From UHGV virus genome UHGV-0112027: 12,469 nt of DNA; one strand, given 5' to 3'. Both the position numbers and the translations under genes were made by a program. The notes under the pieces were generated by a model. That model saw only the letters and a list, made by a program, of their open reading frames with translations, had not been told where the DNA came from and searched no databases. Shown one piece after another: positions 9,584 to 10,371 of the stretch. The first letter of the stretch is position 1. The number at the start of each line of letters is the position of its first letter. The DNA is from a virus.

Positions 9584-9741
9584 AGCATCCTCACGATAAT
9601 ATCCGGGTAGGCGCGATCACTTTCGTCTACTCCGTTACAAAGCGAGGCTGGGTATTTCCCGGCCTTTCTGTTATCCGAAATCCCCTGAAAGCACAGCGGC
9701 TGGCTGAGGAGATAAATAATAAACGGGGGCTGTATGACTGA
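9580..9741 (+). CDS. orf60a-like small protein of the lambda exo-xis region
   Basis: 53-aa [56 protein letters not shown], hand-translated (below the track size cut-off); ATGA overlap with the exo stop; N-terminal sequence as I recall for lambda orf60a. Confidence 0.55.
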
Positions 9742-10291
9742 TTTCACCGGAAGCAATACTCCTGCCGAACATCGCGACAGCTGGCGCACACCACCAGAGA
9801 TTTTTGCTGCGCTTAATGCAGAGTTCGTTTTTCAACTTGATGCTGCCGCCAGCGAAAAAAACCGACTATGTCGGCTTTTTATCTCACAGGAGCAGAACAC
9901 ATTAACCACTTCATGGCCTGAAGCAATGGGATATGCCTCTGGTTATGTCTGGTTGAATCCACCATACAGCAATATTTCCCCTTTTGTGAAAAAGGCAGCC
10001 ACTGAAAACAAATTCAGTAGTGTGGGATGTGTAATGTTATTGCCTGCTGACACATCTGTCGGATGGTTTCATGAAGCGATACAAACCGCCAGTGAGGTCA
10101 GATTCATCACGGCAGGACGACTGGCATTTATTAACCCACTCACTGAGAAACCCGTCAGTGGAAATAATAAAGGCTCGATGCTCATTATCTGGCACCCATA
10201 CCCCCGTACACACTGCCACTTTACGACCGTTGATCGTGGAGAGTTGATGGCGTTCGGCTCAAGGATTCTTGCCCGTCGGGAGGCTGCATGA
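9734..10291 (+). CDS. Phage orphan DNA N6-adenine methyltransferase (Dam family)
   Basis: 185 aa with the hallmark NPPY motif (VWLNPPYSN) and the conserved FQLDAAAS segment typical of the phage Dam N6-MTase family; overlaps the orf60a-like stop. Confidence 0.85.
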   Translation: MTDFTGSNTPAEHRDSWRTPPEIFAALNAEFVFQLDAAASEKNRLCRLFISQEQNTLTTSWPEAMGYASGYVWLNPPYSNISPFVKKAATENKFSSVGCVMLLPADTSVGWFHEAIQTASEVRFITAGRLAFINPLTEKPVSGNNKGSMLIIWHPYPRTHCHFTTVDRGELMAFGSRILARREAA

Positions 10292-10371
10292 CAACCACGG
10301 AATGCATTTTTCTGGCAGCGGGCTTCATATTCTGTGTGCTTATGCTTGCCGACATGGGACTTGTTCAATGA
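10288..10371 (+). CDS. Putative small hydrophobic peptide (27 aa), translationally coupled on both sides
   Basis: ATG 10288 overlaps the MTase stop (ATGA) and its own stop overlaps the next ATG (ATGA at 10368-10371); product MTTTECIFLAAGFIFCVLMLADMGLVQ is single-TM-helix-like. Confidence 0.35.
   Translation: MTTTECIFLAAGFIFCVLMLADMGLVQ

Follow-up and report, generated by a model that had tools for sequence, protein, structure and literature searches.

An orphan Dam-type methyltransferase gene in the place of orf63, and a probable small membrane-peptide gene ahead of orf61, in a lambda-like Escherichia coli prophage

The virus genome UHGV-0112027, a stretch of 12,469 nucleotides (nt) that we analysed whole and call the window, is the pL (delayed-early) arm of a lambda-like Escherichia coli prophage. 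Between orf60a and orf61 of its exo-xis region lie a gene for a DNA methyltransferase of the phage Dam type (hereafter the methylase) and an open reading frame (ORF) of 27 codons (the micro-ORF). We propose, with a probability of about 75%, that an orphan methylase has been swapped for lambda orf63, that the position it took is a general slot upstream of orf61, and that the micro-ORF is part of the orf61 module of Escherichia phages. This reading draws on the identities of the genes, the breakpoints of the swap, the distribution of both elements, their embedding in the operon, a constraint specific to one reading frame and the rule by which the slot is filled in Klebsiella and Enterobacter relatives.

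Results

The methylase stands exactly where related phages carry orf63. In a three-way DNA alignment of the window, the Shiga toxin (Stx) phage VT2-Sakai and Escherichia phage PhiR30_1, identity between the window and orf63-bearing phages extends up to AAACGGGG, with GCTGTATG still common, and divergence begins at the start codon. Identity with VT2-Sakai and lambda resumes at GCATGACAAC, and the right breakpoint lies at the stop codon and ATGA that hold the ATG of the micro-ORF. Between these breakpoints VT2-Sakai and lambda carry orf63 (DUF1382, 63 amino acids, aa) and the window carries the methylase; orf63 was not found anywhere in the window. Compared with the orf63-orf61 block of lambda, orf60a, the micro-ORF sequence, orf61 and orf73 are 95-100% identical, and the differences are the replacement of orf63 and a frameshift in lambda orf61. 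The methylase is an exact ORF-for-ORF swap for orf63, from start codon to stop codon, with both overlaps kept. In the window orf60a ends in ..NNKRGLYD*. Because the incoming cassette supplies its last codons, it falls several residues short of the VT2-Sakai protein (62 aa), and its C-terminus departs from that of lambda or VT2.

A preliminary description of this DNA had presented the methylase as a moron inserted between orf60a and orf63, expressed from pL and forming a unit with the micro-ORF. The alignments with VT2-Sakai and lambda speak for replacement instead of insertion, and the methylase cannot lie between orf60a and orf63, since it sits in the place of the latter. Nor does it look like a moron: the region 9300-11300 holds no promoter-like site on the + strand, no terminator flanks the methylase, and the gene shares 8 nt with orf60a and 4 nt with the micro-ORF. 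The overlap with the orf60a stop was correctly recorded (the methylase starts 8 nt inside orf60a, whose end is at 9741, in the sequence ATGACTGA), and expression from pL is likewise supported; the gene has no promoter of its own.

The joint entry of methylase and micro-ORF into the exo-xis block as a two-gene moron would account for the ATGA common to both ORFs, for the strong GGAGG in the 3' end of the methylase ahead of the micro-ORF start, and for the G+C content of the methylase (0.44-0.455, below flanks of ~0.52-0.54), although low G+C fits a foreign origin in general and is not specific to morons. The distribution data refute this hypothesis, which we regard as hardly conceivable. The 84 nt of the micro-ORF are base-for-base identical in lambda (complement(30925..31008)), and VT2-Sakai differs at three synonymous sites only. 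The segment is matched in 3141 of 5426 E. coli genomes, with an identical micro-ORF in about 3100, whereas the methylase locus is present in 244 of the 5426 complete genomes (≥80% of the query covered). The micro-ORF follows orf63 in ~2900 E. coli genomes that lack the methylase, as it does in lambda, VT2-Sakai and phage 21; when ~100 related loci were compared, the ORF terminating at its ATG proved to be the methylase in 12 and orf63 in the majority, invariably with a TGA stop codon overlapping the ATG. Moreover, the right breakpoint falls precisely at the micro-ORF ATG, the absence of orf63 denotes a replacement, flanking promoters or terminators were not found, and in Enterobacter the closest methylase homologues (73-75% identical) lie directly before an orf61 homologue, with no micro-ORF.

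To judge from its sequence, the methylase is an intact, selected, orphan enzyme of the phage Dam type, predicted from homology to make N6-methyladenine. The preliminary description had it as a Dam-family N6-adenine methyltransferase with an NPPY motif and without a partner nuclease, and so it appears to be. Pfam PF05869 (Dam; cutoff 28.1 bits) matches it with E=2.3e-56 and 190.5 bits over profile positions 1-168 of 169, NCBIfam TIGR01712 'phage N-6-adenine-methyltransferase' (equivalog cutoff 97.05 bits) with 165.6 bits, and the PHROG match is phrog_111. The protein carries LDAAAS at aa 35-40 and NPPYS at aa 75-79 (in WLNPPYS; N75-P76-P77-Y78) and ends in RREAA*. All 41 columns that are invariant in an alignment of five enzymes (T1 Dam, Stx-phage Dam and the Erwinia, Enterobacter and window proteins) are kept in the window protein (41/41), and the family-invariant W-x-TP, LDxAA, NPPY, MLxPxDxSxxWF, GR..F and GNxKG are all present. 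No solved structure related to it was detectable by sequence. Neither an endonuclease nor a specificity gene adjoins it, its neighbours being orf60a, the micro-ORF, orf61, a TraR-like gene and a DUF4222 gene.

The same protein is known from many E. coli prophages. RefSeq WP_000129285.1, 'phage N-6-adenine-methyltransferase', is 100% identical to it, and its cluster comprises 537 deposited sequences, nearly all of 185 aa. An argU/intD prophage of E. coli 2013C-3264 carries a 100% identical locus, and PhiR30_1 (PV340558) one of 99.4% identity, in which the gene is annotated as DNA N-6-adenine methyltransferase. These DLP12-type (argU/intD) prophages and PhiR30_1 have the same neighbours as well (orf60a, an unannotated micro-ORF, a 71-aa orf61, the TraR-like and DUF4222 genes); the window differs from them in its integrase module, beyond ~11233, and not in the methylase locus itself. 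Further away are the methylases of Enterobacter phages (73-75% identity), those of Erwinia phages (62-68%), the Dam encoded next to NinE in the nin region of Stx phages (46.6%) and phage T1 Dam (44.5%). The last two belong to the same family of small, single-domain, orphan enzymes with LDxAA, NPPYS and GNxKG motifs, but Stx-phage Dam is encoded in the pR/nin region and T1 Dam by a virulent phage, while the window methylase lies in the exo-xis arm under pL. T1 Dam and VT2 Dam methylate GATC. By analogy with these relatives (T1 Dam and M.EcoVT2Dam, ~45% identical), the target of the window enzyme is most likely GATC too. M.EcoVT2Dam itself has been cited as an orphan Dam homologue (PMC6602927). 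Two other candidates for comparison were dropped: Hia5 does not belong to this family, being EcoDam/T4Dam-like with DPPY and FxGxG motifs (PMC3299994), and M.EcoGIX, considered as a prophage Dam, is plasmid-borne and specific for single-stranded DNA.

Could the methylase nevertheless have decayed, or be carried along inactive? Lysogens show no distinct methylome signal from prophage Dam homologues (PMC4659465; PMC6602927), and E. coli B has a 5'-truncated pseudogene copy. Against decay stand the full-length profile match, the retention of every family-invariant residue including NPPY, the excess of synonymous variants in the E. coli population (11 synonymous, 6 non-synonymous) and the 185 aa kept across the 537 cluster members; silence in lysogens, for its part, is what one would expect of a gene in the pL operon. 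We consider a dead methylase very improbable. The pseudogene in question lies in the DLP12 remnant of the E. coli T7 Express / B lineage, is 98.9% identical to the window over 9921-10371 and adjoins ren, emrE and ybcK; downstream of it the micro-ORF, orf61, the TraR-like gene, the DUF4222 gene and intD are intact.

Comparison of the junction between methylase and orf61 across the window, Enterobacter phage CobraSix, Klebsiella phage RothD, KpnBHU6, Escherichia sp. E1V33 and 71 IMG/VR loci with a Klebsiella-type Orf61 indicates that enterobacterial lambdoid phages generally have a methyltransferase slot just ahead of orf61. In Klebsiella and Enterobacter relatives the gene overlapping the orf61 start was consistently read as a DNA methyltransferase, drawn from at least five families. 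In CobraSix, the product of gp41, downstream of exo, is a 637-aa C5+Dam fusion; its C-terminal domain is the closest homologue of the window methylase in that phage, and an ATGA joins its stop codon to the start of the Orf61 homologue. The slot is filled by an MT-A70 methylase in RothD and by an MT-A70 methylase plus a 255-aa protein in KpnBHU6. At the 71 IMG/VR loci the slot gene overlaps the orf61 ATG by 4 nt and encodes a PF05869 Dam methylase (175-188 aa), a PF00145 C5 methylase (286-400 or 653 aa), a C5+Dam fusion (PF00145+PF05869; 561 or 674 aa), a PF01555 N6/N4 methylase (386 aa), a PF05063 MT-A70 methylase (218 aa) or an unassigned protein (256 aa). The junction (c/a)GGAGGCNGC-ATGAC recurs at the Dam, MT-A70, N6/N4, 653-aa C5, C5+Dam-fusion and unassigned-protein loci, and it forces the end '..EAA*' on unrelated proteins (REAA, TEAA, LEAA, SEAA); the C5 methylases of 286-400 aa end in '..MGVA*' before a GGGGGTCGC-ATG junction. 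CobraSix gp41 and the Klebsiella prophage methyltransferases thus resemble the window gene in their position after exo, in the GGAGGCNGC-ATGAC junction and '..EAA*' end and in a Dam domain of 73-75% identity, and differ from it in that Dam is often fused to or replaced by C5, MT-A70 or N6/N4 methylases and no micro-ORF precedes orf61. A further kind of cargo is found in E1V33, in which orf60a is followed by a 355-aa gene of the DndB family (PF14072, DGQHR) ending in TEAA*.

In the window the methylase ends RREAA* with cgGGAGGctgcATGACA; here the ATG opens the micro-ORF, and orf61 begins 80 nt later behind a weak Shine-Dalgarno (SD) sequence. The ribosome site of the junction thus starts the orf61 homologue in Klebsiella and Enterobacter phages and the micro-ORF in the window. 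Because the same junction ATG opens orf61 elsewhere, the start of the micro-ORF is the positional homologue of the ancestral orf61 start. On this comparison the micro-ORF is an addition of the Escherichia lineage, in which ~80 nt peculiar to Escherichia phages separate its ATG from orf61. The constant pairing of Orf61 with a methylase in the other genera suggests a possible functional link between Orf61 and DNA modification.

Annotations disagree on what the 84 nt encode. RefSeq gives the Stx phages (VT2-Sakai) a 93-aa Orf61 starting at the equivalent of window position 10302, in which case the micro-ORF would be no gene at all and its 84 nt would encode the N-terminal 22 residues of Orf61. 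This long form appears in many GenBank records besides RefSeq, the PHROG 303 profile spans 93 positions, and in E1V33 an ATGA-coupled ATG reads in that frame into orf61. The variation among 217 loci from IMG/VR and reference phages tells otherwise. Read in the micro-ORF frame, the 16 distinct single-base variants of the 84 nt are 11 synonymous and 5 non-synonymous, the best ratio of the six frames, with 11 in the third codon position, 4 in the first and 1 in the second; random changes would be synonymous in a fraction of 0.235-0.27, which gives binomial P values of 1.6e-4 to 6e-4 (about 3e-4 for a fraction of 0.25). The same variants in the frame of long orf61 are 2 synonymous and 14 non-synonymous, 11 of the 16 falling at the first codon position, and the best antisense frame has 8 of each. 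As controls, the short form of orf61 gave 16 synonymous and 16 non-synonymous variants, orf63 14 and 20, and the methylase 11 and 6. An antisense ORF at 10221-10355, which shares wobble positions with the micro-ORF, was rejected with 8 synonymous against 8 non-synonymous changes and a C-terminal part that changes with the upstream cargo.

Homologues of Orf61 lead to the same start. A word-indexed protein search with orf61 matched E. coli only, and the distant homologues surfaced by tblastn against phage genomes. They align with the 71-aa form from its first residue on (MTP..), with identities of 47% in Klebsiella, ~30% in Enterobacter and 31-37% in Vibrio, and in four genera they start at the short-form Met; none of the Klebsiella, Enterobacter and Vibrio phage proteins begins earlier. 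The 71-aa form was also chosen by PGAP, both at the identical locus and in E. coli B, and by the CPT annotators (phages 21 and 434); at the identical locus and in these two phages the 84 nt were left unannotated. In addition, no SD precedes ATG 10302, and published AlphaFold/RoseTTAFold models of the 93-aa Orf61 show a fold in residues 24-93 only, with no consistent structure for residues 1-23 (PMC8614690). Because variant counts, homologue starts and published models agree, we judge that the micro-ORF frame is the constrained one and that the N-terminal extension of 'Orf61' is an annotation artefact; a genuine 93-aa protein appears improbable. The lambda reference has yet another version: its 'orf61' (30839..31024, NC_001416, 61 aa) starts 16 nt upstream of the micro-ORF and crosses it in another frame. 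It ends early because lambda has AAAAAAA (7 A) where the Stx phages and the window have AAAAAA (6 A), and from the conserved Met lambda encodes only a truncated Orf61 of 29 aa.

Several records were set aside along the way. Three 'divergent' orf61 matches were discarded, two as assembly artefacts with indels and one as an insertion sequence (IS) insertion. A scan of species-representative genomes returned mostly lambda DNA contaminating unrelated assemblies: contigs of up to ~48.5 kb with the 7-A orf61 of lambda occur in assemblies of Shewanella, Pseudomonas, Bradyrhizobium, Paenibacillus, Kitasatospora and others, and these are almost certainly lambda control-DNA contamination.

A 27-codon ORF by itself is unremarkable in the window, which holds 124 ORFs of 20-45 aa. 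The micro-ORF peptide, MTTTECIFLAAGFIFCVLMLADMGLVQ, nevertheless ranks second of these 124 in its best 19-residue hydropathy (2.33) and is predicted to form a single hydrophobic helix after a short polar N-terminus. Its tight embedding in the operon was rightly noted in the preliminary description: its ATG overlaps the methylase stop as ATGA (10288-10291), and its own stop overlaps the orf61 start as ATGA (10368-10371). It is not, however, unannotatable by size, as had been claimed: hypothetical proteins already in the databases (ETI79567.1 and others; UniProt A0A0A2SGE8) match all 27 aa exactly, and the peptide has been called on 981 contigs. The peptide has no match in Pfam, NCBIfam or PHROG families, and its sequence was not found in a literature search. 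Conservation at the RNA level does not explain the micro-ORF, as no Rfam family matches the window and no stable RNA fold was found over 10260-10400 (z = +0.9). Small membrane peptides with one helix that phages and prophages encode, type I toxins among them, are similar in size and in their single hydrophobic helix; the micro-ORF differs from them in being embedded in an operon rather than standing alone, in matching none of the families searched, and in yielding no evidence of an antisense RNA or a promoter. Two rearrangements were seen nearby: an IS3-family element sits in orf61 of one E. coli genome, and two IMG/VR contigs have a deletion that fuses bet to the middle of orf63; the micro-ORF is intact in all of them.

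Taken together, the frame-specific constraint and the predicted helix make it probable that the micro-ORF is a genuine gene for a small membrane peptide, confined to phages of Escherichia. Alternatively, it might be a mere relay that carries ribosomes from the slot site to the weakly initiated orf61, its peptide being without function. The ATGA overlaps at both ends and the weak SD of orf61 would suit a relay, as would the absence of the micro-ORF from other genera, where orf61 uses the GGAGG site directly, and the case of E1V33, which manages without it by frame fusion. A relay should tolerate amino-acid changes, yet 11 of the 16 variant types are synonymous, a stronger constraint than that on orf61 or orf63 at the same loci, and the peptide is a clean hydrophobic helix. 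We hold such a relay, with a peptide devoid of function, to be unlikely.

Discussion

How might the swapped methylase, the slot and the micro-ORF work together? The methylase would be read from pL within the chain of overlapping ORFs exo-orf60a-X-orf61-orf73, in which X is the slot gene. It would be silent in the CI-repressed lysogen and made early after infection or induction; such silence would follow from its dependence on pL and agrees with the lack of a separate methylome signal from prophage Dam homologues. Once made, it may methylate replicating phage DNA, probably at GATC, either protecting it against restriction or making its methylation complete. The micro-ORF would most likely be translated from the GGAGG site of the slot here, and by termination-reinitiation after orf63 elsewhere, to give a single-helix membrane peptide, and termination at the ATGA would then pass ribosomes on to orf61. 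We tentatively go one step further, rating the idea somewhat below an even chance: the micro-ORF would be a genuine, translated small membrane protein of lambda and its E. coli relatives, overlooked for decades beneath the mechanically defined 'orf61', born of an insertion of ~80 nt after the ancestral orf61 start and now gating the translation of orf61.

Several observations weigh against the reading proposed here. The selection test is built on only 16 variant types. Homologous loci outside Escherichia, those of Klebsiella and Enterobacter phages, lack the micro-ORF, which marks it as young, with a peptide that may be of little consequence. Within the genus, the E1V33 locus has lost 14 nt; this deletion destroys the start of the micro-ORF and brings orf61 into frame with the ATGA-coupled ATG, for a product of 93 aa, and the micro-ORF is thus dispensable in that lineage. 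It goes uncalled in RefSeq, in the lambda reference and in the CPT annotation of phage 21, and a review that quotes the lambda ribosome-profiling study of Liu et al. 2013 lists new ORFs of 7 aa and 31 aa only in this region, with no ORF of 27 aa. Finally, the characterised relatives of the methylase are only ~45% identical to it, which makes its presumed target sequence a guess.

The methylase itself changes little. It is ordinary and already known: orphan Dam-type methylases are common phage cargo, and the exact protein is named in RefSeq. The micro-ORF under lambda orf61 and the adjacency of Orf61 and methylases do not depend on it. The exo-xis literature (Wegrzyn and Donaldson laboratories) takes orf61 as a 61-aa protein in lambda or a 93-aa protein in Stx phages, whereas our comparison favours a 71-aa protein and a separate micro-ORF. 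The distinction matters for the interpretation of deletion and over-expression experiments on 'orf61', since the annotated lambda orf61 interval contains the whole micro-ORF and its deletion also removes the latter; if the micro-ORF is indeed a gene, published phenotypes of lambda 'delta-orf61' could stem wholly or partly from the loss of its peptide. Outside Escherichia, the constant adjacency to methylases provides a first functional lead for Orf61. More generally, a slot with a conserved ribosome-site junction exemplifies how lambdoid mosaicism could swap anti-restriction cargo while leaving translational coupling undisturbed.

Other features of the window

The genes around the swapped segment are listed in Table 1. 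The start of orf60a is either ATG 9574 or, according to PGAP, ATG 9580, which overlaps the exo stop as ATGA. The weak SD of orf61 is GGGA at -13..-10, and its start codon overlaps the micro-ORF stop. At the right end the AlpA-like excisionase ORF converges on the integrase ORF; the window and the intD prophages with the same methylase locus have different integration modules, and the best whole-window E. coli matches end at 11233.

Table 1. Coordinates of the genes and sites discussed, numbered from the first letter of the window.
Feature	Coordinates	Strand	Basis or remark
bet	8121-8906		
exo	8903-9583		
orf60a (DUF1317)	9574..9741 or 9580..9741	+	Pfam PF07026, E=1e-33; alignment; annotation of identical locus
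Left breakpoint of the orf63 replacement	9727..9736	+	three-way DNA alignment
Methylase (PF05869 Dam / TIGR01712), 185 aa	9734..10291	+	ORF list, raw sequence, profile searches
Junction GGGAGGCTGC-ATG (SD, 4-nt spacer, start codon)	10275..10290	+	cross-phage junction comparison
Micro-ORF, 27 codons, hydrophobic	10288..10371	+	ORF list, raw sequence, lambda comparison
orf61, short form, 71 aa	10368..10583	+	phrog_303; PGAP names 'hypothetical protein' or 'ZapA'
Second micro-ORF	10580/10586-10675	+	annotated in several phages
Terminator-like hairpin	10604-10622		followed by a T run
TraR/DksA-like orf73 homologue	10682-10900		
DUF4222 gene	10948-11226		
AlpA-like excisionase ORF	11287-11478	+	
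Tyrosine-integrase ORF, possibly longer	11459-12451	minus	

A second micro-ORF, MKSKIIRELQAPFLLFAFTLKRINQQFRD, lies between orf61 and the TraR-like gene and is 29 aa long from its ATG or 31 aa from its GTG; in phage 21 it bears the label 'putative secreted protein'. The terminator-like hairpin lies inside it. The GTG form may correspond to the 31-aa 'orf2313' of the lambda ribosome-profiling study.

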